This document shows positions 8,844 through 32,395 of a DNA stretch of 64,000 bases, in pieces. The stretch is from a virus (Duplodnaviria; Heunggongvirae; Uroviricota; Caudoviricetes). Each line of letters starts with the position of its first letter. The first letter of the stretch is position 1. A model generated the notes under the pieces. It was not told the DNA's origin. It did no database searches and saw only the letters and a program-made list of their open reading frames with translations. The position numbers were made by a program, and so were the translations under genes. The stretch lies in IMG/VR virus record IMGVR_UViG_3300034061_003277, positions 479 through 64,478 of that record; one strand, 5' to 3'.

Positions 8844-8890
8844 GTTTGGCTTTTAGATTTTTATATATTATCTTTATAGTATAAATTAAA
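8844..8890 (+). promoter_or_regulatory. class-I (host sigma-A-like) promoter: TTTG-N20-TAtcTTTa
   Basis: 'gTTTGgcttttagatttttatatatTAtcTTTatagtataa'; 44-nt identical copy at 16708. Confidence 0.6.
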
Positions 8891-12593: not shown

Positions 12594-13673
12594 ATGGGTT
12601 ATTTAAAAAACATAGTCACTTATTTCTACAAAATATTATTCAGCTCAGAGATAAATGAAGCTGATAAATTTATTGATAAAGCTGCCATCATCTCTATAAC
12701 TGATGAGCGTGGTAAGATAATCTATGTTAATGATAAGTTTGAGAAGGTTTCTGGGTGGACATTAGATGAGGTTAGAGGTAAAGATCATTCTATAGTCAAT
12801 TCCGGGACGCAACCAGATGGCTATTGGGGTAAGATGTATGAGACTGTGTTGAAGGGTGAAGTGTGGAATGATATTGTATGTAATGTAACTAAAGAGGGTA
12901 AACATTATTGGGTAGACACTTATATTAGAGCCCGTTTTAATAAATGTGGAAAACTAAAAGGATTCTCATCTATTAGACAGGACGTCACTGCGCTTATGGA
13001 GCAGTCTGTTGAGTTAAATAGAAAGAATACATATCTAGAACACGCTGCTAAAATTCTTAGGCACGACATGCACTCAGGTATAAACACTTACATACCAAGA
13101 GGTATTAGTTCATTAGAAAGAAGACTCAAACCAGAAGATATTCAAAAGTTAAAAATAGAAGCTCCTCTTAAGATGATTAAAGAGGGGCTAACTCATGCTC
13201 AAAAAGTTTATAAAGGTGTTTATGAGTTTACCAATTTGGTTAAAAAAGATGTTGTGTTAGATAAAGAGTTATATGATTTAAAACAAATATTAAACTCATA
13301 TCTAGCATCAACTTCATATAAAAGTCAAGTAATAATCAAAGATTTATCTACTGTAGAAGTCAATGAAGCATTATTTTGTACAGCTGTAGATAACCTAATT
13401 CGCAATGGGTTAAAATACAACGACTCAGATACTAAAATAGTAACTATATTTATGGAGGATGATTCTACTCTTGCTATTCAAGATAATGGTAGAGGAATAA
13501 CTCAAGAAGATTTTAATTATTTATCTAGACCTTACACTCGTAAAGAAGGACAAAAAGAAGCAGGTACTGGTTTAGGTTTAAATATATGTGTTGCAATTTT
13601 AAAAGAGCATGGTTTTGATATTACATGTGAAAAAAATGAGGTTGGAACCAAAATGAAAATTAAAATAAAATGA
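12594..13673 (+). CDS. cytoplasmic sensor histidine kinase (PAS + HisKA_3-like H-box + HATPase_c)
   Basis: PAS-like N-terminus (ITDERGKIIYVNDKFEKVSGWTLDEVRGKDHSIV...HYWVDTYI); H-box-like LRHDMHSG; ATPase boxes NGLKYNDSD, DNGRGI, GTGLGLNIC. Confidence 0.7.
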   Translation: MGYLKNIVTYFYKILFSSEINEADKFIDKAAIISITDERGKIIYVNDKFEKVSGWTLDEVRGKDHSIVNSGTQPDGYWGKMYETVLKGEVWNDIVCNVTKEGKHYWVDTYIRARFNKCGKLKGFSSIRQDVTALMEQSVELNRKNTYLEHAAKILRHDMHSGINTYIPRGISSLERRLKPEDIQKLKIEAPLKMIKEGLTHAQKVYKGVYEFTNLVKKDVVLDKELYDLKQILNSYLASTSYKSQVIIKDLSTVEVNEALFCTAVDNLIRNGLKYNDSDTKIVTIFMEDDSTLAIQDNGRGITQEDFNYLSRPYTRKEGQKEAGTGLGLNICVAILKEHGFDITCEKNEVGTKMKIKIK

Positions 13674-14302
13674 GAACACTATTACTATTAAGTTTCTTAT
13701 TAATATCATCACTAGGATTTAGCCAAACTAAATACCCTATCCAAACTATATTCAGAGGTGACTCAGTTGTTATTCTAACTATTAAACAATCTTTTGGTAT
13801 TAATAAAGCAATTGAAACCCAAAAAAGAATTATCCGAGACCAGAATAAAAAAATACTCGCTCTAAATAAAACAATTGATAGTTTAAATAGGATAAATAAT
13901 AGAGTTAATACTGTTATTGATAGTATACAATATATTGCAGACACAACATATAAGTGGGCTGACGAATTTAATATGGTTATCAGAGAACGAGCTATAGGTC
14001 CATGTTTACTTTATACCATACCTCCTTATAACAGTGTATTCTTTTTAGATTTAAGTCGTTATAGAATGTATAGTACAGAATACGGTGAAAAAATTGAATT
14101 AGAATTAATGTCAGATAAACAATATGCCGAGTTTAAAAGACTACAAGATTTATATTTTGATAGATACTACCCTACTTTAGATTATTATAAAGAGATTGGG
14201 TTTAAAGATTTTAATACTGAGATTGAATTATACGAGAAGGCAATTTGGAAGACTAAAAATATAATGAAGTTAATGATAAAACAAGAAGAAAAGAAAAAAT
14301 GA
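13670..14302 (+). CDS. secreted protein encoded between the two kinases
   Basis: Signal peptide MRTLLLLSFLLISSLGFSQ; start overlaps kinase stop. Confidence 0.5.
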   Translation: MRTLLLLSFLLISSLGFSQTKYPIQTIFRGDSVVILTIKQSFGINKAIETQKRIIRDQNKKILALNKTIDSLNRINNRVNTVIDSIQYIADTTYKWADEFNMVIRERAIGPCLLYTIPPYNSVFFLDLSRYRMYSTEYGEKIELELMSDKQYAEFKRLQDLYFDRYYPTLDYYKEIGFKDFNTEIELYEKAIWKTKNIMKLMIKQEEKKK

Positions 14303-15606
14303 AAAAAATAATATCATTACTTATAGTCTTACTTGTATCTATAAATTTATACTCCCAAGAGATAAATTATAAAGACACTCTAGTAGATAACATAGAAACA
14401 ACTTGGATTGATAGCGATACAGCGACATTGGCCGCTATGGGTATTCAAGAAATTGTTACTACTTGGATTGAACCAGAACCAGAGCCAGAACCTGAACCTG
14501 TTGACATGACACAGTTATCAGAAACTGATTTAGTCAACATTGCTCAGGATGTACAATTCCTATCAGAATTGCCTAAGTCATATACTGATTTACCTAAAGA
14601 GGATTTAAAGAATGTTTTAGTTCAAATTGATAATAAACTTAATAAATTAACGGCTGAGCGAGATTCATTATTAGCACAAGCAACTAGAAATGATGAATTA
14701 ATTAAATCAAAAGAAAATACAATTAACGCCTTAGGAAAAGAAAAGAACATCATTGGTTTAACTTTAGAAACTGGTGATTTAATAGTTGAGAAAACAGATT
14801 TAGAAAAGCAAAGAGAAACATTAAAAAAATATCTCTATTGGGCTGTTGGTATAGTAATATTATTTAGTTTAATACTTGCTGTTGTATTACAAAGAAAGAA
14901 AATACAAGTACAGGACGTAGAAATTGAAGAACAACTTAATGACATATCTAAAAAGAATAGTTACTTAGAACACGCTGCGAGAATTATCCGCCACGACATG
15001 CACTCAGGTATAAACACATACATGCCTAGAGGTATTAGTTCACTTGAAAAACGATTAACACCTGAAGACATTCAAAAGTTAAAAATAGAAGGTGCTTTAA
15101 AAATGGTTAAAGAAGGTTTAAACCATACACAGCGAGTATATAAAAGTGTTTATGAATTTACTAACTTAGTGAAATCAGATGTTGTATTGAATAAAACCAA
15201 AGTTAATCTAAAAGATTTGCTTCAAAACTACATTACCCCAAACTCATATAGCTCACAGGTTGAAATTAGTGACTTAGAAGAATTAGAAGTAAATGAAATT
15301 TTATTTTGCAATGCAGTTGAAAATTTAATTAAAAATGGATTATCATATAATGATAGCCAAGAAAAGAAAGTCAAAATATATATTGACAACGACAGTTTAG
15401 TAATCGAAGATAATGGTCGAGGATTTACACAAAAACAATTTGATAAACATTTAACAAAATACTCAAAGAAAACAAATGTTACAGGTGATGAAAATGGACT
15501 CGGTTTGAATATATGCGTTGCTATATTAGAGGAGCATGGTTTTAAATTAAGTTGTGAAGGAAACAATGTAGGAACTAAAATGAAAATTAAAATTAAAAAT
15601 GACTGA
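14299..15606 (+). CDS. membrane-anchored sensor histidine kinase (paralog of 12594-13673 core)
   Basis: Signal peptide, TTWIDSD/TTWIEPE repeat, EPEPEPEPEP linker, coiled coil, TM (WAVGIVILFSLILAVVL). Kinase core ~85% nt-identical over H-box (ttagaacacgctgc...cacgacatgcactcaggtataaaca); DNGRGF, GLGLNICVAILEEHGF. Confidence 0.7.
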   Translation: MKKIISLLIVLLVSINLYSQEINYKDTLVDNIETTWIDSDTATLAAMGIQEIVTTWIEPEPEPEPEPVDMTQLSETDLVNIAQDVQFLSELPKSYTDLPKEDLKNVLVQIDNKLNKLTAERDSLLAQATRNDELIKSKENTINALGKEKNIIGLTLETGDLIVEKTDLEKQRETLKKYLYWAVGIVILFSLILAVVLQRKKIQVQDVEIEEQLNDISKKNSYLEHAARIIRHDMHSGINTYMPRGISSLEKRLTPEDIQKLKIEGALKMVKEGLNHTQRVYKSVYEFTNLVKSDVVLNKTKVNLKDLLQNYITPNSYSSQVEISDLEELEVNEILFCNAVENLIKNGLSYNDSQEKKVKIYIDNDSLVIEDNGRGFTQKQFDKHLTKYSKKTNVTGDENGLGLNICVAILEEHGFKLSCEGNNVGTKMKIKIKND

Positions 15607-16051
15607 CTTGAACATGATTGAATCTATTTTATTAGTAGATGATGAGGATTTATTCCACTTAGTATTTGAAGATGCTTGTAGCCTATTAGACATAACTTTG
15701 TCTTTGGAAGCTATAAACAGTGCTGATGAAGCCGAAAAACGATTTAAAAAATGGTTTGATACCGGTGATATATCTGATAAACCAAAATGTGTATTTGTTG
15801 ATTTAAATATCATAGGATCATCGTTTGATGGTATTGAATTAATTCGACGAATTAACTTTATGTATGGTAACCATGTAGTAGTTGGAATTATATCATCAAG
15901 TAATGAAGCAGAAGAACAAGCCAAAGCACTTCAAGCCGGGGCCCAATTTTGGATCATTAAATCAGATGATATTGAACCACGATTGGAAGAATTTAGAAAA
16001 GACTACCAGGCGTATGAAGCTAGAACAGCCCCATTTAAAATATATAGATAA
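15599..16051 (+). CDS. stand-alone response-regulator receiver (REC, CheY-like)
   Basis: LLVDDED acidic pocket, phospho-acceptor Asp in VFVDLNI, conserved S/T (ISSS) and Lys (WIIKS); no output domain. Confidence 0.75.
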   Translation: MTDLNMIESILLVDDEDLFHLVFEDACSLLDITLSLEAINSADEAEKRFKKWFDTGDISDKPKCVFVDLNIIGSSFDGIELIRRINFMYGNHVVVGIISSSNEAEEQAKALQAGAQFWIIKSDDIEPRLEEFRKDYQAYEARTAPFKIYR

Positions 16052-16707: not shown

Positions 16708-16749
16708 GTTTGGCTTTTAGATTTTTATATATTATCTTTATAGTATAAG
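16708..16749 (+). promoter_or_regulatory. class-I promoter (exact repeat of 8844-8885)
   Basis: gtttggcttttagatttttatatattatctttatagtataa. Confidence 0.6.
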
Positions 16750-17304: not shown

Positions 17305-17390
17305 GGCCGGGTGGTGAAACAGGTAGACACGCAGGACTTAAAATCCTGTTGCCCAAAAGAGCAGTGTGGGTTCGATTCCCACCCCGGCTA
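17305..17390 (+). tRNA. tRNA-Leu (anticodon TAA), type II
   Basis: Manual fold: acceptor GGCCGGG/CCCGGCT, D-arm GTG-aaacaggtaga-CAC, anticodon arm CAGGA-cuUAAaa-TCCTG, long variable arm TGC-ccaaaaga-GCA, T-arm GTGGG-TTCGATT-CCCAC. Confidence 0.85.
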
Positions 17391-17503
17391 CTAAAGTACA
17401 TGCTACGCTACCCATAAGAACAGCGTCCCAGAGTATGGCTTTTGCTAAAGAGGATAAAATGCGTAGTAGCCTCAGGAGTCTGCAGCTCCACTACGCTCCA
17501 TTA

Positions 17504-17577
17504 GCGCCCTTAGCTCATTCGGTTAGAGCAACTGACTCATAATCAGTAGGTGCCTGGTTCGATCCCAGGAGGGCGCA
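17504..17577 (+). tRNA. tRNA-Met (anticodon CAT; elongator-Met or Ile2 type)
   Basis: Acceptor GCGCCCT/AGGGCGC, D-arm GCTC/GAGC, anticodon arm ACTGA-cuCAUaa-TCAGT, T-arm CCTGG-TTCGATC-CCAGG. Confidence 0.85.
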
Positions 17578-17598
17578 CTAAAAAGTTTTTTAAATATA

Positions 17599-17978: not shown

Positions 17979-18029
17979 ATCCTAGATTCTTAAATAAATT
18001 TTATTATCTTTATAGTATAAATAAAAATT

Positions 18030-18503
18030 ATGAATATATTTTACATCCATGAAGATCCAGTTATCGCCGCTCAAATGTTAGCTGATGATCACATTCGCAA
18101 AATGCAAATTGAATCAGCTCAAATGTGTTGTACAGCGCATTGGGAGACAGGAAATGAAGCACCATATAAACGTGCTCATAAGAATCATCCATCAACAATA
18201 TGGGTTAGACAATCAGTACAACACTATAAATGGTTAGTGAAACATGGCCTAGAGATATGCAAAGAGTTTGAATTACGTTATGGTAAACGTCATGCTACAC
18301 AAAATGTGCTTGAATGGTGTGAAAAAAATATACCTAACATATCAAACAATACATTTAAAGAACCACCATTATGCATGCCAGATGAATTTAAAGTAGGTGG
18401 TACAATTGAATCATATCGTAATTTTTATGTTAATGATAAGATTAAAATTAAAGGATTAGATTGGAAAAAAATACCAAATAAGAAACCAAACTGGGTAATA
18501 TGA
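18030..18503 (+). CDS. conserved hypothetical protein
   Basis: 157-aa ORF after a class-II promoter. Confidence 0.5.
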   Translation: MNIFYIHEDPVIAAQMLADDHIRKMQIESAQMCCTAHWETGNEAPYKRAHKNHPSTIWVRQSVQHYKWLVKHGLEICKEFELRYGKRHATQNVLEWCEKNIPNISNNTFKEPPLCMPDEFKVGGTIESYRNFYVNDKIKIKGLDWKKIPNKKPNWVI

Positions 18504-18703
18504 CACCAAAAGAAAAAGCAGAACAATTAGTAAACAAAATGTTTAACTGGATTCAAGGCGGAAGCGTAATAGAATATGAAACAGCTAAAGAATGTGCCTT
18601 GATAGCAGTAGATGAGATATTAAAAGTAGCGTCATTTTACAATGATTCACAAGCCGAAGTAACTTATTGGCAAGAAGTTAAACAAGAAATAGAAAAATTA
18701 TGA
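18500..18703 (+). CDS. hypothetical protein
   Basis: 67-aa coupled ORF. Confidence 0.4.
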   Translation: MTPKEKAEQLVNKMFNWIQGGSVIEYETAKECALIAVDEILKVASFYNDSQAEVTYWQEVKQEIEKL

Positions 18704-19431
18704 GCAAGACAATTATATTAGGAGACACACACGGTCGTAACATTTGGAAAGAGATCGTGTTTCAAGAAAAAGCAGATAGAGTTATTTTTATCGGAGACTA
18801 CTTTGATAGCTTTGATATAGGCCCTGCTGAGCAAATGCATAATTTTCAAGAGATTATTGACTTTAAAGAGAAGGGTGAGTGTGAAGTTATTTTATTAATT
18901 GGTAACCATGACTTTCATTACTACCCAGGCGGCGAGACATACTCAGGATATAAAGCAGGCGCAGCCCCAGCTATTAGACAGATGTTACAAGAAAATGATC
19001 ACCATATGCAAATGTGTTATCAACTTGATAATATCTTATTCACACATGCTGGTATTGGTCATGACTGGTTAGTGTATCAAAACCAATATGAACCATTTAC
19101 AGATCAAGATACTGTAACCAACATAGCTGATTTTGTAAACGCAATTTGGAAATATCAACCTAATCGTTTTATGTTTTATGGAATTGATCCATACGGTGAT
19201 AGTAAAACACAAACACCGATTTGGATACGCCCACAATCATTAATAGCGGGTAATCGAGGTACATTCTTGAAAACAGATTATATCCAAGTAGTAGGTCATA
19301 CTCATGTCGCTAAGATTGATATTGAGGGTAAATCGACAGGCGGTAGATATTATTTCATCGATACATTTGACACCTCAGGTCAATTTTTAGTTTATGAAAA
19401 TAAGGAGTTCAGATTAGGAGAATATCCTTAA
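18700..19431 (+). CDS. calcineurin-like metallophosphoesterase (Ser/Thr-phosphatase / polynucleotide 3'-phosphatase fold)
   Basis: Motifs GDTHG, GDYFD, GNHD, THAG, GHTH. Confidence 0.8.
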   Translation: MSKTIILGDTHGRNIWKEIVFQEKADRVIFIGDYFDSFDIGPAEQMHNFQEIIDFKEKGECEVILLIGNHDFHYYPGGETYSGYKAGAAPAIRQMLQENDHHMQMCYQLDNILFTHAGIGHDWLVYQNQYEPFTDQDTVTNIADFVNAIWKYQPNRFMFYGIDPYGDSKTQTPIWIRPQSLIAGNRGTFLKTDYIQVVGHTHVAKIDIEGKSTGGRYYFIDTFDTSGQFLVYENKEFRLGEYP

Positions 19432-19488
19432 CTTTTTATCCTAGGCTTTTAAATTAAATTTATTATCTTTATAGTATAAGAAAAAATT

Positions 19489-19608
19489 ATGAAAAATAAA
19501 ATAAATGGTAACGCGGTTGATCTAATAGTAGGAATAGCTGCTGTATTTGGAGTAATGACAATATTATTCTCTGCTGTTGGGATGATTATTAAATTAACAT
19601 TTGGTTAA
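19489..19608 (+). CDS. 39-aa hydrophobic peptide (not in track)
   Basis: ATG 9 nt after a class-II promoter; MKNKINGNAVDLIVGIAAVFGVMTILFSAVGMIIKLTFG. Confidence 0.3.
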   Translation: MKNKINGNAVDLIVGIAAVFGVMTILFSAVGMIIKLTFG

Positions 19609-20215
19609 TATGGTTGATAATTTTGAGAAAATACGCTACAGGTTGAAATTTGAGGATGATTATTTTTATTTCATCCAGATTATACAGCGGAGTAAAGAAA
19701 ATCCTGAATTAGGTTCAAACAATAGAATTATTCGTTCTTATAATATTGATTCATTAGAAAAGTTTGATAAAAATAAGGATGAAATAACAATACTGTGTGA
19801 TACATTTAATGCTCGAGCTTATATTCATTTGAATAGAAGAAAGTGGAGTAAGGTTGCACTTGAATGCTTAAGACATAATGCCGAATTAATTGCTAATAAC
19901 CAACACAGTGGTATTAAGTCAAGTTTTGAGACTGTAATTGGACGTAACAATGGTGAATCAAGTGAAACTAAGACATGGATCATTGATATTGATATGAATG
20001 ATTTAGAGGTTGTAAATAAAATTGAACGTATCATTAATAGTGTAGAACCTATAGATAGAACTGTAACTAAATTAATGTATGTTCTTCCTACCAAGAATGG
20101 GTTTCATATGATCACTAAACCATTCAATAGAGCTGAATTTACTAAGTATATGCAGTTGCAAGGTGATACACCTGATATTCATACTGATAACCCAACAATA
20201 TTATACGCAATATGA
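19601..20215 (+). CDS. hypothetical protein (track start is TTG; first ATG at 19610)
   Basis: 204-aa ORF between the phosphoesterase and kinase genes. Confidence 0.5.
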   Translation: MVNMVDNFEKIRYRLKFEDDYFYFIQIIQRSKENPELGSNNRIIRSYNIDSLEKFDKNKDEITILCDTFNARAYIHLNRRKWSKVALECLRHNAELIANNQHSGIKSSFETVIGRNNGESSETKTWIIDIDMNDLEVVNKIERIINSVEPIDRTVTKLMYVLPTKNGFHMITKPFNRAEFTKYMQLQGDTPDIHTDNPTILYAI

Positions 20216-20610
20216 AAACATTAATATTATTAAGAGGATTACCTGGATCGGGTAAATCAACATTAGCTAAAATGTTAGTCGGGGATAAAGATTACCGACA
20301 CAAAGAGGCTGATATGTTTTTCGTCGACGGTGAGGGTAATTACAAGTTTGAACCATCAAAAATCAAAGATGCTCATGCTTGGTGTCAAGAGGAGGTTGAT
20401 TTCCTAATGAGATATGAGCATTCGCCAGTGGTAGTGTCAAACACATTCACACAAGAGTGGGAGATGGATGCTTATTTTGAATTAGCTGAGAAGTATGATT
20501 ACCAAACATCTTGCCTTATAGTAGAAAATAGACACGGTGGAGTAAATGAACATGGTGTACCCGCAGACAAATTAGAACAAATGAAAAATCGTTTTGAAAT
20601 AAAATTATAA
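20212..20610 (+). CDS. P-loop polynucleotide-kinase-like protein (AAA_33/PNK kinase-domain type)
   Basis: Walker A LLRGLPGSGKSTLAKM at N-terminus; ~130 aa. Confidence 0.6.
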   Translation: MKTLILLRGLPGSGKSTLAKMLVGDKDYRHKEADMFFVDGEGNYKFEPSKIKDAHAWCQEEVDFLMRYEHSPVVVSNTFTQEWEMDAYFELAEKYDYQTSCLIVENRHGGVNEHGVPADKLEQMKNRFEIKL

Positions 20611-20624
20611 AAATAACAAACAAA

Positions 20625-20873
20625 ATGAAAATTACAGTAATCCACAACCCAGATGAAGAAAATTGGGGACAATATGCAGGAGTTGAAACAATTTTAACTA
20701 CTAATGAAGGCACAGAATCAGTCAACTTTGCTGGAGGTGAACCTGAAGACATGAGTATTGCTAGAGATTTGAGTGATGCCTGGAGCATTAAAGAATTATT
20801 AGTTAGAGCATATAATGCAGGTAAGAATGGCGAAACATTAGAAATCGAAGAAATAACAGAAGACGACGAATAA
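20625..20873 (+). CDS. small acidic protein
   Basis: 82 aa, D/E-rich. Confidence 0.4.
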   Translation: MKITVIHNPDEENWGQYAGVETILTTNEGTESVNFAGGEPEDMSIARDLSDAWSIKELLVRAYNAGKNGETLEIEEITEDDE

Positions 20874-22037
20874 ATGGAAAACAATAATTCAGTGTGCTAT
20901 GTAGCACGTATAAACGAAATCAACCCAATCCCAGGAGCAGATAATATCGAACAAGGTGTTATCGGAGGATGGAATTGTATTATCAAGAAAGGAGAATACA
21001 AAGTAGATGACTTAGTTGTAGTAGCAACCACAGACGCAGTTATTCCTGTAGAGCTATCAGATGCAATGAACGTAACCAATTACTTACGTAAGGGTCAACG
21101 TGTGCGTACTGTTAAGTTAAGAGGTGTTTACAGTGAGTGTTTGATTATACCTTTAAGATACGCTCGTCAATCTGCTAAATACACTAAATTGGAGTGGAAT
21201 GAAGGTAAGGATGTAATGGAATTGTTAGGTATCTTCAAGTATGAACCACCAGTACGCCAAGTACAAGTGGCAGGGGGTCGTAAGATTAAATATAAAGACA
21301 ACCCTAATTTCCAGGTTTATTATAAATTCCCCAACATAAAAAATGTGAATGGAATGTTTAATGAAGAAGATTATGTACAAATTACTCGTAAGATACATGG
21401 TACAAATGCTCGTTATGGTATTGTTAAGAAACATAAGTTATCATTTTGGGATAAGTGTAAAAAATTCTTACGATTAGCTGATGAGTGGATTGAGTATGAA
21501 TATGTTTATGGTTCACATAACGTTGAGAAAGGTTCTGATACACAAGGTTTCTACTCAACTGATGTTTGGAGAGAGGTAGCTGATAAGTATCAAATCAAAG
21601 ATAAGTTGTGGGCGTTTGTTAAGAATCACACACCAACTGAAGTTGGAACTGGAGTAATAGTATATGGTGAGATATACGGACCTGGTATTCAAAAGAACTA
21701 TGACTACGGATTGAAGGAGTTAGAGTTTGCTGGTTTTGATGTTGTATGGAATGGTAAATATTTTTGTGGTGAATTAACTCATCTTACAATGATTGGTAAG
21801 CATAATGACTTTATCGACGGTGTTGATTTGCCTCACGTACCTATTTTATATGTTGGACTTTGGTCTCAAGAGATTCAAGATAAGTTCACATTCAACAACT
21901 TTATTGAAGGAACTAAAGTACCACATGAAGGTATTGTAATCAAACACACAAGTGGACAAAGAGAAAAAGTAGCTAAAGTAATTAACCCAGACTATCTCAT
22001 CTATGGAGAGAAACATGATGTAGGAGATTCACACTAA
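20874..22037 (+). CDS. ATP-dependent RNA ligase (KxHGxN nucleotidyltransferase in C-terminal half, DraRnl/Rnl5-like arrangement)
   Basis: Motif I RKIHGTNARYG at ~residue 175; motif IV HEGIVIKH; motif V KVAKVINPDY; ~170-aa N-terminal extra domain. Confidence 0.6.
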   Translation: MENNNSVCYVARINEINPIPGADNIEQGVIGGWNCIIKKGEYKVDDLVVVATTDAVIPVELSDAMNVTNYLRKGQRVRTVKLRGVYSECLIIPLRYARQSAKYTKLEWNEGKDVMELLGIFKYEPPVRQVQVAGGRKIKYKDNPNFQVYYKFPNIKNVNGMFNEEDYVQITRKIHGTNARYGIVKKHKLSFWDKCKKFLRLADEWIEYEYVYGSHNVEKGSDTQGFYSTDVWREVADKYQIKDKLWAFVKNHTPTEVGTGVIVYGEIYGPGIQKNYDYGLKELEFAGFDVVWNGKYFCGELTHLTMIGKHNDFIDGVDLPHVPILYVGLWSQEIQDKFTFNNFIEGTKVPHEGIVIKHTSGQREKVAKVINPDYLIYGEKHDVGDSH

Positions 22038-22047
22038 GACTTTTTAT

Positions 22048-22083
22048 CCTAGGCTTTTAAATAAGATTTATTATCTTTATAGT
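22048..22083 (+). promoter_or_regulatory. class-II phage promoter: cCTAG-N19-TAtcTTTatagtat
   Basis: cctaggcttttaaataagatttattatctttatagtatg, immediately before ATG 22084. Confidence 0.6.
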
Positions 22084-22734
22084 ATGAAAATAGAATTAAA
22101 ACCCCACCAAGGATTATGGTTTACAAGTGATACTCACTACAACCATGCTAACATATGTCGAGCGACTACAAGATGGACTGATGCAGATGCTGTGACTCGT
22201 GACTTTAGTTCATTAGAGAAAATGAATGAGACATTAGTATCTAACATTAACAAATATGTTCAACAAGATGATATCCTGATTCATTTAGGTGATTGGTCAT
22301 TTGGTGGTTTTGAGAGTATTAAAGAGTTTAGAGATAGGATTGTATGCCAAAACATACATTTAGTACTCGGAAACCATGATCATCATATTTCAAACAACAG
22401 AGACGATATCCAATCTATATTCAGTTCAGTAAATCAATACTTAGATTTAGATGTTAGATGGTGGGTTGCTGGTAAGATAAAAGAACACGCTCGTTTCATC
22501 TGTATGCATTATCCTATAGCGAGTTGGAATGGAATGAATGATGGGGCAGTTCACTTACATGGACACGTTCATTTACCTAAACATTTAAGAATGGCAGCTG
22601 GCAAGGCAATGGATGTAGGAGTAGATGGAAATGATTTGGAGCCAATTGAAATGGATGATATATTAATTAAAATGGTATCTAGACCAATCGATAAATTAAC
22701 ATTACCAAAAGATCATCACGTTAAAAGAATATAA
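22084..22734 (+). CDS. calcineurin-like metallophosphoesterase (second copy)
   Basis: SDTHYNH, LGDWSFGG, GNHDHH, HLHGHVH. Confidence 0.75.
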   Translation: MKIELKPHQGLWFTSDTHYNHANICRATTRWTDADAVTRDFSSLEKMNETLVSNINKYVQQDDILIHLGDWSFGGFESIKEFRDRIVCQNIHLVLGNHDHHISNNRDDIQSIFSSVNQYLDLDVRWWVAGKIKEHARFICMHYPIASWNGMNDGAVHLHGHVHLPKHLRMAAGKAMDVGVDGNDLEPIEMDDILIKMVSRPIDKLTLPKDHHVKRI

Positions 22735-24336: not shown

Positions 24337-24600
24337 ATGGCAAAGTACAGAAAGAAACCAATAGTGATAGAAGCAGTACAGTTCACAAGAGCGAACTGGG
24401 AAGCAGTACAATCATTCACACAAGGCAAGGCACACACTCTTACAATCGAGAAGAGAATAGATGGCAAATGTACTTGTATCATTCCAACCTTAGAAGGGCA
24501 ACATATAGCTACAGAAGGGGATTGGATCATTAAAGGTGTAGCTGGAGAGTTTTATCCTTGCAAACCAGATATATTTAAACAAACATATGAATCATACTAA
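24337..24600 (+). CDS. hypothetical protein
   Basis: 87-aa ORF. Confidence 0.45.
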   Translation: MAKYRKKPIVIEAVQFTRANWEAVQSFTQGKAHTLTIEKRIDGKCTCIIPTLEGQHIATEGDWIIKGVAGEFYPCKPDIFKQTYESY

Positions 24601-24829
24601 ACAAACCGCACTACAATGGTATATTAAACAATGTGAAAACATTAAATATAACCCATTAGAAAAAAATGGATACACCATTGCTAAAGAAAAAATTATTAAG
24701 CAAGCACTTGAAATGGAGAAGGAGCAGATATTGGATGCCGTAAAATATGGCTGCTCAGATTGGGGAAGTGCTAAAGATGCTGAACAATACTACAACGAAA
24801 CTTACGGAGGTCAAGATGAAACACTTTAA
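24587..24829 (+). CDS. YYNETYGG-family small protein (paralog 1)
   Basis: KQTALQWY...EMEKEQI...EQYYNETYGG. Confidence 0.5.
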   Translation: MNHTKQTALQWYIKQCENIKYNPLEKNGYTIAKEKIIKQALEMEKEQILDAVKYGCSDWGSAKDAEQYYNETYGGQDETL

Positions 24830-25094
24830 AATTATGGGTAGGATAGTCCTACTGTTTAGTATAATAATGTTCATGTCTTTTATCCCTGATTCTTTTCCCG
24901 AGTTCTTTGGAGACTGGTACTGTAATGGAGGTAACTATTATAAACAAGAAGGATGCTTATATGGCCCAGCTGCTATTCACGGCCCTACATTGCATTGGGG
25001 ATTCCGTCATTACATATGGGTGTTTATGGGTATTACTCTGTTTATCTATAATGCTGTAATTATGGTAATTAAATTAGATAAAGAATCAAGATGA
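24816..25094 (+). CDS. membrane protein (ATG at 24816; track ORF starts upstream)
   Basis: MKHFKIMGRIVLLFSIIMFMSF...; two TM helices. Confidence 0.4.
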   Translation: MKHFKIMGRIVLLFSIIMFMSFIPDSFPEFFGDWYCNGGNYYKQEGCLYGPAAIHGPTLHWGFRHYIWVFMGITLFIYNAVIMVIKLDKESR

Positions 25095-25345
25095 ATAAGC
25101 AAACTGCGGTTGAATTTTTAATAAAAGAATTTAATGATATTCTTGGTCCGTTAGACACTAAACCAATGCAAGATTTATTAATGATGGATGCAATGAAAAG
25201 AGCCAAGCATATGGAGAAGTGGCAGATTAAAGGGGCTTACCAAAAAGGCAGATTTAGTGGCCAAACTAATTGGGGTTACGGTAATGATGTAACAGCAGAA
25301 CAATACTACAACGAAACTTACGGAGGTAACAATAACATACAATGA
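25091..25345 (+). CDS. YYNETYGG-family small protein (paralog 2)
   Basis: MNKQTAVEFL...HMEKWQI...EQYYNETYGG. Confidence 0.5.
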   Translation: MNKQTAVEFLIKEFNDILGPLDTKPMQDLLMMDAMKRAKHMEKWQIKGAYQKGRFSGQTNWGYGNDVTAEQYYNETYGGNNNIQ

Positions 25346-25362: not shown

Positions 25363-25644
25363 ATGAGAATAAACATTAGAATGACCGAGTCATATACAAC
25401 GTATGTTATTAGAGACTCATTTGTAATTGATACTGACGACTACCCTGAACTACAAGGTATGAGTGAAATAGATATGATGAAATATGTTCATGAAAACAGT
25501 GAGAACATAGAGCATAAAGAATGGGAACAATCGTTGTGGGACGCTGCAAGTGAGATGGATGTGTTAAGAGATAAGATAACAGACGATACACGTGAGTTTC
25601 ATGTTGAAGCATTAGTAGATGGACATCCAATAAAAATAAAATGA
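25363..25644 (+). CDS. hypothetical acidic protein
   Basis: 93-aa ORF. Confidence 0.4.
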   Translation: MRINIRMTESYTTYVIRDSFVIDTDDYPELQGMSEIDMMKYVHENSENIEHKEWEQSLWDAASEMDVLRDKITDDTREFHVEALVDGHPIKIK

Positions 25645-25922
25645 AGACACAAACCGCAGTTGAATGGTTGGAAGAGCAAATAAAAGATATTTTTTATGTT
25701 GCTGAAGCATCTGAAATGACTAAAAAGTTCAAAAGTGTTTATGAACAAGCCAAGCAAATGGAGAAGGAGCAGATTGATAACTTTATTGATTTTATAAATG
25801 AAAGACATTTTAATCGATTTACATTATCAAAAGATGAAGCAGAAATATATTACAACGAAACTTACGGAGGTAATATAACACCACGCATGAGTGAAGATTA
25901 TACATTTGAAGATGGAGTTTAA
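25641..25922 (+). CDS. YYNETYGG-family small protein (paralog 3)
   Basis: MKTQTAVEWLEEQ...AKQMEKEQI...EIYYNETYGG. Confidence 0.5.
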   Translation: MKTQTAVEWLEEQIKDIFYVAEASEMTKKFKSVYEQAKQMEKEQIDNFIDFINERHFNRFTLSKDEAEIYYNETYGGNITPRMSEDYTFEDGV

Positions 25923-25936
25923 CCTTAATCTTTTAA

Positions 25937-25972
25937 CCTAGATTTTTAAATAAAATATATTATCTTTATAGT
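25937..25972 (+). promoter_or_regulatory. class-II phage promoter
   Basis: cctagatttttaaataaaatatattatctttatagt then ATG 25973. Confidence 0.6.
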
Positions 25973-27073
25973 ATGAAATTAAATACATTATACAAAAGAG
26001 CAGTAAACGGTAAAATAAATGAATGGACCGTTGAAACATTAGATAATTGTTTTAGAACAATATCAGGTTATACAGATGGAGTTAAAACCACTTCTGAATG
26101 GACATGCTGTGCTGGTAAGAACATTGGTAAGAAAAATGAGACAACACCTGAACAACAAGCATTAGCTGAAGCTAAAGCGATGTGGACTAAAAAATTAGAG
26201 TTAGGTAGTTATGAATCAATAGATGATATTGATACACCTAAGTTTTTTAATCCAATGTTAGCTCATAAGTTTGAAGACCATAAAGATAAAATTGAATACC
26301 CAGTTTATAGTCAACCTAAATTAGATGGTATTAGATGTATTGTTAGAGCAGATGGTATGTGGAGTAGAAATGGTAAGAAAATTATCTCAGCACCTCACAT
26401 TTATGAAGCTATGAAACCATTGTTTGAATCTAATCCTGATTTAATATTTGATGGTGAGTTATATGCTGATAAATTTGCGAATGACTTTAATGCTATTTGT
26501 TCATTAGTTAAGAAAACTAAACCAACAAATGATGATTTAAAGAAAAGTAAAGAATCAATTCAATACCACATTTATGATTTGCCTAGTTGTAATGGTACAT
26601 TCATTAAACGATTATCTGAATTAACTAATTTAGAGTCTAATTTACCTTCATGTTGTGAGGTAGTAGCTACAAATTTTGTTAAAAACGAAAGTGAAATTGA
26701 TGAATGGTATAGTGATTATGTTAATCAAGGTTATGAAGGACAAATGATTCGTTTAGATAAAGAATATGAATCAAAACGTTCTAAATCATTACTTAAACAT
26801 AAGTCGTTTATTGATGAAGAATATACTATCTTAGATGTAGTTGAAGGTGAAGGTAATAAAACAGGAATGGTAGGTTCATTTGTATTTAAGAGTAAGACAG
26901 GACATATATTTAATTCGTCACCTAAATTTAACTGGGAGGAATGTAAGGCGATGTGGAACAATAAAAATGAATTAATTGGCAAATCAGCTACAGTTAAGTA
27001 CTTTAACTTAACACCAGATGGTGTTCCAAGATTTCCATATGTAATTAAAATTGATAGAGAGAGTTACGAATGA
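25973..27073 (+). CDS. ATP-dependent DNA ligase
   Basis: Motif I KLDGIR, motif III IFDGELY, motif IV EGQMIR, motif V LLKHK; C-terminal OB-like region. Confidence 0.75.
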   Translation: MKLNTLYKRAVNGKINEWTVETLDNCFRTISGYTDGVKTTSEWTCCAGKNIGKKNETTPEQQALAEAKAMWTKKLELGSYESIDDIDTPKFFNPMLAHKFEDHKDKIEYPVYSQPKLDGIRCIVRADGMWSRNGKKIISAPHIYEAMKPLFESNPDLIFDGELYADKFANDFNAICSLVKKTKPTNDDLKKSKESIQYHIYDLPSCNGTFIKRLSELTNLESNLPSCCEVVATNFVKNESEIDEWYSDYVNQGYEGQMIRLDKEYESKRSKSLLKHKSFIDEEYTILDVVEGEGNKTGMVGSFVFKSKTGHIFNSSPKFNWEECKAMWNNKNELIGKSATVKYFNLTPDGVPRFPYVIKIDRESYE

Positions 27074-28680: not shown

Positions 28681-28804
28681 AATAATTAGCCCCGCTCGCG
28701 AGGGGATCGTAAAACACAGTAAGCCTCTGACACAAGCTCAAGTAACTGTTCTCATCGTATAGGAGATAGAGTTAGCCTACTCGACGTCGTTTAAAAAGGC
28801 AGCA

Positions 28805-28871
28805 AGTCAGGTAACTTAATTGGCAAAGCTCCTAACAAGGAAGATTGCGGGTTCGAATCCCGCCCTGACTA
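28805..28871 (+). ncRNA. tRNA-like element A (canonical acceptor, D-loop and T-arm; no canonical anticodon arm)
   Basis: 5' AGTCAGG pairs perfectly with 3' CCTGACT; T-arm GCGGG-TTCGAAT-CCCGC; D-loop aattggc; only 67 nt, anticodon region tcc-taacaag-gga is non-canonical. Confidence 0.4.
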
Positions 28872-29136
28872 CGATGAGTGAGAGATCCTCAGGCAGATTG
28901 GCTACATTCTGTAAAAAAAGTAGTGGTAGTAAAAAGCCCCCGACCTTAATGGGGAATCGATTCGGGTTAAAGTGAAGCATATCCGCAGCTCCGACGTATA
29001 GGATTGACAGGTTTTTATGTGGTAAGACACTAATGAAAAAGACCGACTGAGCGAAAGGCAGAAGGGGATATGGTTCTCGAAATAGTTAGAGAAACCCGTT
29101 AAAATCTACTCACTGAGATCTCAGGTGGGGCAATAT

Positions 29137-29299
29137 AGTCAGGTGGCGGAATTGGTAGACGCTATCGTACTCAAGTAAGGCAAAGCAATGTAGATGAAAC
29201 GTCGTCACATGGTGAGTTAACACCTAAAAGTCTTTGGACTTGAAATCCAAAAAACCTTGAGTATGTTCTACAATACAGGTTCGAATCCTGTCCTGACTA
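29137..29299 (+). ncRNA. tRNA-like element B: split Ser(TGA)-type tRNA with ~70-nt insertion between D-arm and anticodon arm
   Basis: 5' AGTCAGG-tg-GCGGAATTGGTAGACGC (canonical type-II D-arm). Perfect anticodon arm TTTGGA-cuUGAaa-TCCAAA at 29233-29251. T-arm ACAGG-TTCGAAT-CCTGT and 3' CCTGACT. Confidence 0.4.
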
Positions 29300-29377
29300 C
29301 GCACCTACAATTGGGTAGGAAGTTGGCCGCCAACCAACAAGGGACAAAGGCTGACACCTCGGAAAGACGAGGAACAT

Positions 29378-29447
29378 AGACAGGTAGTTTAATTGGTAAA
29401 ATGTTCTCATACTGAGAAGAATACAGGTTCGAATCCTGTCCTGACTA
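29378..29447 (+). ncRNA. tRNA-like element C (acceptor/D/T canonical, anticodon arm replaced by tight hairpin)
   Basis: AGACAGG/CCTGACT acceptor (1 mismatch), D-loop aattggtaaa, T-arm ACAGG-TTCGAAT-CCTGT; central TTCTCA-tac-TGAGAA hairpin. Confidence 0.4.
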
Positions 29448-29549
29448 CAAAAACACATTAACTCAAGTACCCATACTGAGGACGATGGGCTAAGTAAGAT
29501 ACAATTCCGTCATGCAGGGAGTAGAATGCTTGAGAATGTGTTTAAATAT

Positions 29550-29654
29550 AGTCAGGTGATTTTTGGAAAACGCAGCACCTTCCAGGGTTGAGACTAACAG
29601 CTAATGGCACTCAGAATGATAAAGCTGAAGCAGGTTCGATTCCTGTCCTGACTA
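29550..29654 (+). ncRNA. tRNA-like element D (105 nt; shared acceptor and T-arm, expanded centre)
   Basis: AGTCAGG...GCAGG-TTCGATT-CCTGT-CCTGACT-A; 73-nt central region without canonical arms. Confidence 0.35.
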
Positions 29655-29670
29655 CTAAAAATAAAAATAT

Positions 29671-29915: not shown

Positions 29916-30317
29916 ATGATTATATATTTAGATGATATACGAACACCAATTGAGACAGATTGGGTTGTTGTTAGAAATTATGATGAGTTTGTATCTAAAA
30001 TAACTGAAATTGGTTTAGATGATATTGAACTAATATCATTAGATCATGACCTAGGCGATTCAGCTATGAGGGAATGGCACACCAATGTATATCACAACTA
30101 CACCTTAGACTATAATAACATTACAGAGAAGACTGGAATGGATTGTGCTAGATGGTTAGTGGAACAATGGTTAAATGGAGCCCCAGTATGCCAAGTAATG
30201 ATTCACTCAGCTAACGCTGTTGGTAGTGCTAACATGATGGGTTATATTAACAACTATAAACATATCCATCATTTAGAACAAGACTGTGCTCGATGGGTAA
30301 TACCACATACAATATAA
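29916..30317 (+). CDS. hypothetical protein
   Basis: 133 aa. Confidence 0.45.
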   Translation: MIIYLDDIRTPIETDWVVVRNYDEFVSKITEIGLDDIELISLDHDLGDSAMREWHTNVYHNYTLDYNNITEKTGMDCARWLVEQWLNGAPVCQVMIHSANAVGSANMMGYINNYKHIHHLEQDCARWVIPHTI

Positions 30318-30579: not shown

Positions 30580-31383
30580 ATGTTAGAAATCGACAATTCA
30601 TCATTTCTCAGCAAAGCTGAGATTAAAGAACGTGCCTCATCAGTATTTACTACTGTAAAAGGTGAAGCAACAAGTGAAAAATACACTCATATTCCAACTG
30701 ACCAAGTCATAGATGACATGGAAAAGTTAGGATGGGGAGTAGTAGACGCTAAACAAGTACGCGCTCGTAAGGGTGTAGGTTATCAAAAACATTTAGTTGT
30801 GTTTCGCAATCCGAATGTAGCTATTAATGGTGAGGATGGTGATGATGTGTTTCCACAAATTCTATTAACAAATTCACATGATGGTAAAAACGCATTTACT
30901 TTCACAGCTGGGTTGTTTAGAATGGTATGTGAGAATGGTTTAGTAATATCAACTCAAGAGTTTGAGAATCTAAAGATTCGCCACATGGGTTATAGTTTTA
31001 CTGAGTTACAAGCGACAATTACATCAATGGTAGAAAAATTACCACTAACTGTTGACAGTATGAACAAGCTAAAAGCAACTAAACTAAATCAAGAACAAAA
31101 AATTGATTTTGCTAAACGAGCACTTGAGACAAGATTTAGTAAAGAGGAGGTAGCTAACGTAACTATTAATATTGATGAGTTATTAGAACCAACACGTAAA
31201 GAAGATAGTGGTGATGATATTTGGAGCGTGTTTAATGTTATTCAAGAAAAGTTAATTCATGGCATGTTTGAGTACAAAACAGGAACCAAAGCGAGAAAAG
31301 CTCGCAAAATTAAGAACTTCAATCAGGACTTAAAAGTGAATGAGAAGTTATTTGAACTGGCGCTTGAATATGTAGCCGCATAA
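30580..31383 (+). CDS. DUF932-like phage/plasmid protein
   Basis: LLTNSHDGKNAFTFTAGLFRMVCENGLV resembles the DUF932 core; from memory, unverified. Confidence 0.35.
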   Translation: MLEIDNSSFLSKAEIKERASSVFTTVKGEATSEKYTHIPTDQVIDDMEKLGWGVVDAKQVRARKGVGYQKHLVVFRNPNVAINGEDGDDVFPQILLTNSHDGKNAFTFTAGLFRMVCENGLVISTQEFENLKIRHMGYSFTELQATITSMVEKLPLTVDSMNKLKATKLNQEQKIDFAKRALETRFSKEEVANVTINIDELLEPTRKEDSGDDIWSVFNVIQEKLIHGMFEYKTGTKARKARKIKNFNQDLKVNEKLFELALEYVAA

Positions 31384-31615: not shown

Positions 31616-32395
31616 ATGAAAAAAGTAGTTCTATTCTCAGCCGCTGCTGCGGCGATGTTATTCACAGCATGTAACCCTGTTCAACCTAATTTTGAAGGGG
31701 TATTAATGCAAAATTATGGCCGAAATGGAGTTCAAGACTTCAGTATTGTAACTGGTACTCAAGGTATGTTAGGCCCAGGTACTGAGTTATATCAGGTACC
31801 AATGTATGAACAAACAGCTGACCCTACTCAGGTAACTATTACTGCTAAGGACGCAGGTGTATTTACAGTAGATCCATCATTCACATATGAAGCAATTCGT
31901 GGTAAAGGTATTGATATTGTATTTAATTACAAGCATACTGGGTTTGATGATAATATGGATAACTTGGAAAATATGATTTTGAATCCAATTGTTATCAATG
32001 CGTTTAGGGAGGAAGCACGTAGTTTTACTACTGACTCATTGATGAATAATCTAAATATGTTCGAGTCTAGAGTACAGGAGCGTTTACGTGCTGAGTTTGA
32101 GAGTAAATTCTTTAAACTAAATAGTTTAACATCGGGTCTAACCCCACCAACTAGTATGGCTCAAGCAATTGAATCTCGAAATAACCAAAAGCAAATGGCT
32201 GAGCAGGTTCGGAATGAACTTGAAGTAGCACGTATGCAAAAGGAAAAAGCTCAAATTGAACAAGAAACTAATAAGATTATTTCTCAAGGTTTGACTAAGG
32301 AAATTTTATCACAACAGTGGATTGAAGCAATCCGTAACACAAGTAATAAGATTATTATTACAGACGGTAAAACACCAGTGATGTTACAACAATAA
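31616..32395 (+). CDS. lipoprotein, possibly SPFH/band-7-like
   Basis: Lipobox AAMLFTAC; C-terminal A/E/Q-rich helical region typical of SPFH proteins (weak). Confidence 0.4.
   Translation: MKKVVLFSAAAAAMLFTACNPVQPNFEGVLMQNYGRNGVQDFSIVTGTQGMLGPGTELYQVPMYEQTADPTQVTITAKDAGVFTVDPSFTYEAIRGKGIDIVFNYKHTGFDDNMDNLENMILNPIVINAFREEARSFTTDSLMNNLNMFESRVQERLRAEFESKFFKLNSLTSGLTPPTSMAQAIESRNNQKQMAEQVRNELEVARMQKEKAQIEQETNKIISQGLTKEILSQQWIEAIRNTSNKIIITDGKTPVMLQQ

Follow-up and report, generated by a model that had tools for sequence, protein, structure and literature searches.

Phages are already known to heal and seal broken RNA. Phage T4 counters PrrC with Pnkp and Rnl1, and phage RNA-repair systems in general combine a ligase with a kinase, a phosphoesterase, and a nucleotidyltransferase (PMC7824862). 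Ligases of the Rnl5 family, whose defining architecture and phage homologues have been noted previously (PMC4408790), occur widely across bacteria and phages as well as fungi and amoebae, and their physiological role has been described as uncharted. The lone genetic study of the family proposed an unidentified ribonucleotide-incorporating polymerase as the partner of the Deinococcus enzyme, DraRnl, in a "ribo-patch" model of DNA repair (PMC5397189). Here we describe a gene cluster in a 64,000-nucleotide stretch of phage DNA (IMG/VR record IMGVR_UViG_3300034061_003277, positions 479 to 64,478; hereafter the window), in which the gene for an Rnl5-type RNA ligase shares a putative operon with genes for a polynucleotide kinase (PNK)-like kinase and a small protein of the AEP/prim-pol fold, flanked by the genes for two calcineurin-type metallophosphoesterases, MPE1 and MPE2 (Table 1). 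An AEP-fold gene sharing a putative operon with an Rnl5 gene is notable whether the substrate is RNA or DNA. With moderate confidence, we read the cluster as a heal-(fill)-seal module with which the phage would repair broken RNA, and it fits the combination of enzymes known from other phages.

The window is part of a 165-kb metagenomic contig that its structural and lysis genes identify as a phage. Its host group is Bacteroidota, and megablast of the region returned no close relative among GenBank phages. An initial annotation had placed a four-gene tRNA repair cassette here. Its ORFs (open reading frames), starting at 18700, 20212, 20874, and 22084, were recovered at the same coordinates and all on the + strand, and its domain calls were reproduced, with Pfam returning Metallophos (twice), AAA_33, and RNA_ligase and the PHROGs in agreement.

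Judged by its sequence, the ligase is of the Rnl5 (DraRnl/NgrRnl) type, with intact catalytic motifs and the architecture that defines the family. An N-terminal OB domain (PF21189, the PHA02142 OB-fold domain; E = 9.5e-17, residues 10 to 94) precedes a C-terminal RNA_ligase half (PF09414; E = 1.6e-14, residues 167 to 370), the PHROG match is to RNA ligase (3e-61), and the alignment to TIGR02306, the DraRnl model, is full length (residues 10 to 375 against 5 to 339 of 341; E = 7e-31). Because its score against that model, 107.3 bits, lies under the curated equivalog cut-off of 151.15, we place the protein in a divergent Rnl5 subfamily. A family profile of 21 homologues matched the NgrRnl structure at a whole-chain E of 1.1e-23, with residues 12 to 128 forming a stretch at 2.3e-17; the second-best structure, T4 Rnl2, reached just 1e-5. 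Motif I is K173 in RKIHGTN, and this lysine, E266 of motif III, F288/D289 of motif IIIa, E352-G353-x-x-x-K357 of motif IV, and K368 of motif V are invariant or nearly so among the homologues. The chain ends 19 residues past motif V and so carries no appended domain. K173, PF09414, and TIGR02306 thus bear out the earlier description of a DraRnl/Rnl5-like KxHGxN ligase with its nucleotidyltransferase in the C-terminal half. The identity that had been set against it, a DNA ligase or capping enzyme, is ruled out by the matches to Pfam RNA_ligase and the DraRnl model, and a DNA_ligase_A_M/OB protein encoded at 25973 to 27073 is a separate ATP-dependent DNA ligase.

That the kinase is a relative of RNA 5'-OH polynucleotide kinases is a well-supported prediction. 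It matches AAA_33 in Pfam (5e-13) and "polynucleotide kinase" among the PHROGs (5e-9). Across 22 homologues, its P-loop, G12-S-G-K15-S16-T17, is invariant save for residue 13 (S or A) and a nearly invariant T17, and D34 (in E32-A-D34), 19 residues past the P-loop lysine, is invariant. A P-loop with a downstream aspartate is the hallmark of PNK-clade kinases, and D34 corresponds in position to T4 D35 and MciKIN D36, the general base for the 5'-OH (PMC11571804). R107 (in ENRH) and R127, invariant in the same set, are candidate lid arginines that would contact the NTP phosphates. The best PDB matches of the kinase profile, at E-values that are modest, were in order RazKIN (9d8a; 2e-5), T4 Pnk (6.6e-5), 9drz, PSTK, and the CthPnkp kinase, and 9d8a is the RNA 5'-OH kinase that Mucorales use, as a stand-alone protein, in tRNA splicing. 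A deoxynucleoside monophosphate kinase, the other identity that had been held open, is ruled out: adenylate and thymidylate kinases align only across the P-loop, and the profile groups with RNA 5'-OH polynucleotide kinases. The same ~130-residue family is found as a solitary gene in genomes of Bacteroidota, Vibrio, Thalassospira, and Leptospira (loci L201 to L280).

The AEP-fold protein matches no Pfam family, and its PHROG, phrog_14949, is of unknown function. It nonetheless has the AEP catalytic fold, with LigD polymerase domains among its structural matches; a Foldseek search against viral structures returned uncharacterised proteins only. Motif I (D126-x-D128) and motif II (G164-x-H166), which sit on predicted strands 123 to 127 and 165 to 169, are invariant among 42 homologues of 35 to 46% identity. 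Candidates for motif III lie in DIHxDNPT, where H191 and D193 are invariant and D189 is nearly so in close homologues only; they are not among the conserved columns of the diverse set. A Pfam scan of the 42 members found no consistent family, a single one matching PF09250 at E = 0.023. The protein defines a large family without functional annotation; clustering at 50% identity gives 2007 representatives (~2000 clusters), almost all of them ~200 residues long. Among GenBank phages, members occur solely in those that infect Bacteroidota and in uncultured gut phages (Cellulophaga, Tenacibaculum, Prevotella Lak, and a crAss-like phage). Searches for AEP loci beyond this clade found none in viral contigs with an AEP-cREC fusion as query, returned the same clade with a distant member, and found none in genome contigs. 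As far as we have checked, the fold assignment is new, as is the recurrence of the AEP gene beside genes for an Rnl5 ligase, PNK-like kinase, MPE, and cREC protein. Automatic annotation already provides the labels "RNA ligase (TIGR02306 family)" for the ligase, "predicted kinase" for the kinase, and "calcineurin-like phosphoesterase family protein" and "predicted phosphodiesterase" for MPE2 and MPE1, respectively.

Several AEP homologues have neighbors or fusion partners from families of RNA-end enzymes. One carries a fused cREC domain (3.7e-18). The crAss-like phage cr116_1 carries a PF09414 RNA ligase 1.5 kb 5' of its AEP gene. The gut phage MT835470 encodes a true Pnkp (4xrp, Capnocytophaga Pnkp1, 7e-31; T4 Pnkp, 5e-14) 660 bp 5' of an AEP-like gene, with ligase-like and MPE2-like genes within 5.5 kb. 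In Cellulophaga phage phi17:2 (L073, 5001 to 9404), the gene for the AEP-like gp033 comes first in a row that continues with a PolyA_pol/CCA-type nucleotidyltransferase, a WGR+PARP protein, a hypothetical protein, and finally an ATP-dependent DNA ligase; that a phage encodes a WGR-PARP break sensor among these genes is a curiosity in itself. According to PMC5862659, which cites Burroughs & Aravind 2016, divergent AEP domains have been reported in proteins predicted to repair RNA, mostly those of kinetoplastids.

Among the phosphoesterases, MPE2 is the likeliest 3'-end-healing enzyme. It matches Metallophos at 1.4e-6 and phrog_547 (phosphoesterase) at 3e-42, its binuclear-metal residues (D16, H18, D70, N97, H98, H142, H161, and H163) are invariant, and the family profile retrieved from the PDB solely the uncharacterised Aquifex protein aq_1665 (1xm7; 1.4e-7). 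MPE1 matches Metallophos at 2e-8, and its DxH, GDxxD, GNHD, H, and GH motifs (D9, H11, D33, N69, H70, H116, and H200) are invariant among 11 homologues; it had zero PDB matches as a single sequence or as a profile and a weak match (3.5e-4) to phrog_8238, a 737-residue profile annotated "RNA ligase." Neither protein showed specific kinship to the CthPnkp/lambda-phosphatase clade by sequence or profile comparison with the PDB. A cREC protein encoded further downstream is a predicted distal member of the repair gene neighborhood, and cREC domains have been linked to RNA ligases (Iyer et al. 2021, PMC7824862).

Conserved gene linkage supports the grouping of these genes into a repair module. Ligases 54 to 89% identical to that of the window are encoded on 49 viral contigs, 33 of which extend at least 3 kb on each flank of the ligase gene; neighbors were counted within ~6 kb in these 33 loci. 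The kinase gene is a neighbor in 23 loci, MPE2 in 18 (in all 18 of which the kinase is also present), the AEP gene in 11, cREC in 8, and MPE1 in 7, and at least one of the four end-healing families (kinase, MPE2, MPE1, and cREC) is found in 26. These genes are arranged in 20 different orders, including AEP-KIN-LIG-MPE2-MPE1, MPE2-KIN-LIG, MPE2-KIN-AEP-LIG, MPE2-LIG-KIN, and LIG-AEP. One locus (L030) has contiguous and partly overlapping genes for a Metallophos protein, a cREC protein (6e-21), an AAA_33 kinase, an AEP-like protein, and an Rnl5-like ligase, with cREC immediately flanked by the MPE and kinase genes. Where the kinase is missing, ligase loci have other Metallophos genes and two "Swiss-army-knife" phosphatases of RNA repair, of the HAD_SAK_2 family (5e-20). 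Because the linkage outlasts rearrangement and the swap of one enzyme for an analogous one, it bears the classic signature of a functional module. Farther afield, no kinase or MPE is annotated beside the Rnl5-like ligases of Pseudomonas, Mycobacterium, and Limnohabitans phages, and in phage Wilder a Pnkp lies 3 kb off.

Within the window, the layout of the cluster suggests three putative transcription units. The 17-mer TTATCTTTATAGTATAA occurs 30 times against 0.33 expected, on the + strand every time, between positions 8868 and 44317; copies such as those at 16732, 17623, 18004, 19463, 22071, 25960, and 27469 lie 10 to 30 nt 5' of ORF starts. It probably represents a phage-specific promoter class, and scans for sigma-70 promoters and terminators found no excess over shuffled background. 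The copy at 18004 precedes a Pyr_excise-like gene, a small ORF, and MPE1; the copy at 19463 precedes a 39-residue ORF and then the AEP, kinase, 82-residue, and ligase genes; and the copy at 22071 would serve MPE2. At MPE2 and at the DNA ligase gene (motif at 25960 to 25976), the start codon falls inside the motif, in its variant form TTATCTTTATAGTATGA, a placement suggestive of leaderless transcripts for both. The AEP stop codon overlaps the kinase start (ATGA). The ORF between kinase and ligase (20625 to 20873) has zero Pfam families in a Pfam scan and is missing at most related loci, where the kinase mostly abuts the ligase. The Pyr_excise-like protein in the putative unit of MPE1 resembles pyrimidine-dimer DNA glycosylases (18030 to 18503; PF03013, 1.3e-5; phrog_624, 1e-51).

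These results reshape the four-gene end-healing and sealing unit of the initial annotation. Synteny upholds the grouping of kinase, MPE2, and ligase, and MPE1, in another putative unit and near the ligase in only 7 of the 33 loci, is a loosely linked, peripheral member. With the AEP-fold and cREC genes, the idea of Pnkp/ligase chemistry split among separate genes gives way to a heal-fill-seal picture. The tRNA genes offered as context proved to be present and are weak evidence, lying 1.1 kb off in another putative unit.

From the domain identities, intact motifs, putative operon layout, and conserved linkage, we infer the enzymatic activities, the order of the steps, and the substrate as follows. 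An RNase cut would leave 2',3'-cyclic-phosphate or 3'-phosphate ends together with 5'-OH ends. The 3' end would be cleared by MPE2, probably with the cREC protein, and the 5'-OH would be phosphorylated by the PNK-like kinase. The AEP-fold protein may then put back missing nucleotides or turn the break into a nick, and the Rnl5-type ligase would close a 3'-OH(RNA)/5'-PO4 nick in a base-paired setting. The substrates would most likely be tRNAs, from the host or from the phage itself, or other structured RNAs that host defense or toxin nucleases have cleaved.

A more specific proposal, which we hold tentatively and consider possible rather than probable, is that the polymerase so far missing as a partner of Rnl5 is the AEP-fold protein, a gap-filling ribonucleotide adder that would act with the kinase, MPE2, and cREC to make, from a ragged break in structured RNA or an RNA-DNA hybrid, a 3'-ribo nick for Rnl5 to close. 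If true, the cluster would be a split LigD-like heal-fill-seal machine for RNA and the first genetic pairing to point to a physiological substrate of the Rnl5 family. The finding of an AEP-fold gene in a putative Rnl5 operon makes the cluster a testable clue to the role of Rnl5, with concrete proteins to test jointly, and widens the known repertoire of RNA repair and counter-defense in Bacteroidota phages.

Several observations weigh against RNA break repair by a dedicated module. DraRnl and NgrRnl seal duplex nicks and require an RNA 3'-OH strand, breaks in tRNA loops being the territory of Rnl1 and Rnl4 (PMC4408790). Counter-defense against anticodon nucleases of the PrrC/RloC kind, as initially put forward, is accordingly reduced to one possibility, since the characterised Rnl5 enzymes seal duplex nicks and not loop breaks. 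The sole in vivo phenotype of an Rnl5 enzyme, radiation sensitivity, places DraRnl in DNA repair (PMC5397189). The function of cREC on cyclic phosphates is itself a prediction. Bacterial-genome relatives of the kinase (40 to 53% identity) are common, solitary, and without conserved neighbors. About 30 units carry the same 17-mer upstream, so that co-regulation is not particular to the repair cluster. Finally, the closest relative of the window (L056, IMGVR_UViG_3300032224_001676) has MPE1-AEP-MPE2 and lacks the kinase, the 82-residue ORF, and the ligase, and two further loci, L058 and the more distant L077, have AEP and MPE2 without kinase or ligase. Flanking proteins of L056 are 97 to 100% identical to those of the window, and identity falls to 78 to 88% around the junction (compared with window positions 20212 to 22083), which suggests recent recombination inserting or removing a sub-module. 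Taken with L058 and L077, this relative suggests that the kinase-ligase pair is an insertable sub-module and that AEP and MPE2 are not strictly ligase-dependent.

The last three loci also support an alternative in which only the kinase and ligase pair functionally, the MPEs and AEP being unrelated early genes in a fast-shuffling region (for example, a replication primase and protein phosphatases or nucleotide phosphodiesterases). This account can also draw on the three separate putative transcription units, on the weak matches of MPE1 to NinI-like Ser/Thr phosphatase and SbcD profiles, and on the many AEP homologues, in Lak phages, pT24, and Dulem virus 40, near which the profiles used detected no repair partner. 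We nonetheless judge it unlikely. Shuffling alone sits poorly with a kinase present in 18 of 18 ligase loci that have MPE2, with the compact overlapping five-gene cluster of L030, with the AEP-cREC fusion, or with an AEP gene that is found between kinase and ligase, 5' of both, or 3' of the ligase and whose linkage persists down to 38 to 44% identity. The AEP protein also lacks the helicase, zinc-binding, and PriCT domains usual in phage replicative AEP primases.

A second alternative keeps the module and changes the substrate. In LigD-like or ribo-patch break repair, AEP would add ribonucleotides where phage DNA is gapped or broken, the kinase and MPEs would clean 5'-OH and 3'-phosphate ends, and Rnl5 would seal the 3'-ribo/5'-PO4 nick. 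The radiation sensitivity of Deinococcus after DraRnl deletion, the WGR-PARP protein and ATP-dependent DNA ligase close to the AEP-like gene of phi17:2, and the pyrimidine-dimer-glycosylase-like and DNA ligase genes near our cluster all agree with such a role. We regard it as rather improbable, and favor RNA over DNA, because cREC (fused or linked to these genes), HAD_SAK_2, the CCA-adding enzyme, and Pnkp are RNA-end enzymes, and a cyclic 2',3'-phosphate requires a 2'-OH. The phage, moreover, already has a dedicated DNA ligase, and a Ku homologue was not encountered, though no Ku search was made. Very improbable is a third alternative, in which the module matures the phage's own RNAs, for example by joining tRNA-like halves at 28.7 to 29.7 kb after endonucleolytic removal of an insert: the 1-kb block there does hold four tRNA or tRNA-like elements with a common T-arm and 3' acceptor, one of them 166 nt long with a ~90-nt insert in its anticodon arm, and the cREC gene is directly 3' of it, but no splicing endonuclease came to light, 6.6 kb separate the block from the ligase gene, its 108-nt element folds no better than shuffled sequence, and the lack of the kinase-ligase pair in the close relative L056 makes that pair dispensable.

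Table 1. Coordinates of the repair cluster, promoter-like motifs, and tRNA or tRNA-like elements in the window
Feature	Position	Strand	Basis
MPE1, calcineurin-type metallophosphoesterase, 243 aa	18700..19431	+	Pfam Metallophos
Promoter-like 17-mer TTATCTTTATAGTATAA, 10 nt 5' of first ORF in putative AEP-kinase-ligase unit	19463..19479	+	Motif count
Small hydrophobic ORF, 39 aa, first gene past promoter-like motif	19489..19608	+	Sequence reading
AEP/prim-pol-fold protein, 201 aa	19610..20215	+	phrog_14949; without Pfam family
P-loop kinase of PNK-like type, 132 aa, predicted to phosphorylate polynucleotide 5'-OH ends	20212..20610	+	AAA_33
Acidic ORF, 82 aa, between kinase and ligase	20625..20873	+	PHROGs of unknown function only
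Rnl5-type ATP-dependent RNA ligase, 387 aa	20874..22037	+	PF21189 + PF09414
Promoter-like 17-mer variant; final bases include MPE2 start codon	22071..22087	+	Motif scan
MPE2, calcineurin-type metallophosphoesterase, 216 aa	22084..22734	+	Metallophos, phrog_547
Protein with cREC domain, 133 aa, predicted to process cyclic phosphates	29916..30317	+	PF20274 8.8e-24
tRNA-Leu(taa)	17305-17391		ARAGORN, Rfam
tRNA-Met(cat)	17504-17578		ARAGORN, Rfam
67-nt tRNA, overlooked by ARAGORN	28805-28871		Rfam 43 bits
166-nt tRNA-like RNA, ~90-nt anticodon-arm insert	29136-29301		Folding z-score -3.6
tRNA-Val	29378-29448		
108-nt element	29549-29656		Folding not better than shuffled

The tRNA-like block is the 1-kb stretch of non-coding DNA from 28681 to 29670, with copies of the common T-arm and 3' acceptor at 28844, 29272, 29420, and 29627. 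An Rfam scan found no match to Y-RNA above noise in this block and no tRNA-like element between tRNA-Leu and tRNA-Met. A 25-mer from the tRNA 3' half, CAGGTTCGAATCCTGTCCTGACTAC, recurs in at least 120 viral contigs (L081 to L200), often in multiple copies each, and 14 of the 120 have a DUF932 homologue in the surrounding stretch. On the 3' side of the block, the window encodes the cREC protein, a DUF932 protein (30580 to 31383), and an SPFH/Band-7 protein (31616 to 32395); Burroughs and Aravind are said to have proposed, in 2016, that SPFH/Band-7 proteins together with tRNA-like RNA are RNA-repair scaffolds.

Elsewhere in the window, a HATPase_c histidine-kinase-like protein (14299 to 15606) is followed by a receiver-domain protein (15599 to 16051), a two-component-like pair that is unusual in a phage, and is preceded by an ORF (12594 to 13673) matching phage "kinase" PHROGs. 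Across the window ORFs, Pfam identified two HATPase_c proteins and one PAS domain, as well as a GFO/IDH/MocA oxidoreductase at 39 to 848 and NeuB, glycosyltransferase, and acetyltransferase families, the last three of which suggest synthesis of nonulosonic acid or another sugar. Three small paralogous ORFs (24587 to 24829, 25091 to 25345, and 25641 to 25922) have a C-terminal YYNETYGG motif in common.

Set beside T4 Pnkp and Rnl1, the cluster is alike in joining a phage 5' kinase, a 3' phosphoesterase, and an ATP-dependent RNA ligase that are proposed to undo nuclease damage, and the kinase domain of T4 Pnk is among the matches of the window kinase profile. It differs in having an Rnl5 ligase, an enzyme that seals nicks and has its OB domain at the N terminus, where T4 has Rnl1; in keeping kinase and phosphatase on separate proteins; in having calcineurin-type MPEs and cREC rather than a HAD domain as phosphatase candidates; and in possessing an additional AEP-fold protein. 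The opponent of the T4 system is PrrC, whereas an anticodon-nuclease opponent of the window phage is putative only. The Pnkp/Hen1 and Pnkp1-Rnl-Hen1 systems of Clostridium thermocellum and Capnocytophaga gingivalis have kinase, calcineurin-type phosphoesterase, and ligase chemistry in common with the cluster; MPE1 and the kinase each weakly match phrog_8238, at different positions, and a true Pnkp1 homologue stands beside an AEP-like gene in MT835470. Unlike those systems, the window spreads its activities over separate small proteins, its ligase is Rnl5 rather than Rnl4, no Hen1 methyltransferase was seen, and its MPEs lack a specific sequence match to the CthPnkp phosphatase.

The nearest relatives of the ligase itself are DraRnl of Deinococcus and NgrRnl of Naegleria, with which it shares the two-domain architecture, the motifs, and the lack of a C-terminal appendage. 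It is divergent from both, with motifs I and III set ~35 residues farther apart, and its gene lies in an end-healing operon that also encodes an AEP-fold protein, a setting absent from the literature consulted. Like LigD, the cluster unites an enzyme of the AEP fold with a 3'-phosphoesterase activity and with a ligase preferring a 3'-ribonucleotide end; it differs from LigD in that its proteins are separate, its ligase is an RNA ligase, its phosphoesterases are of other folds, a 5' kinase and cREC are added, and its target is probably RNA. The predicted RNA-repair "syntax" set out for other systems likewise brings a ligase together with a kinase, a phosphoesterase, and a nucleotidyltransferase (Burroughs & Aravind 2016; Iyer et al. 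2021).

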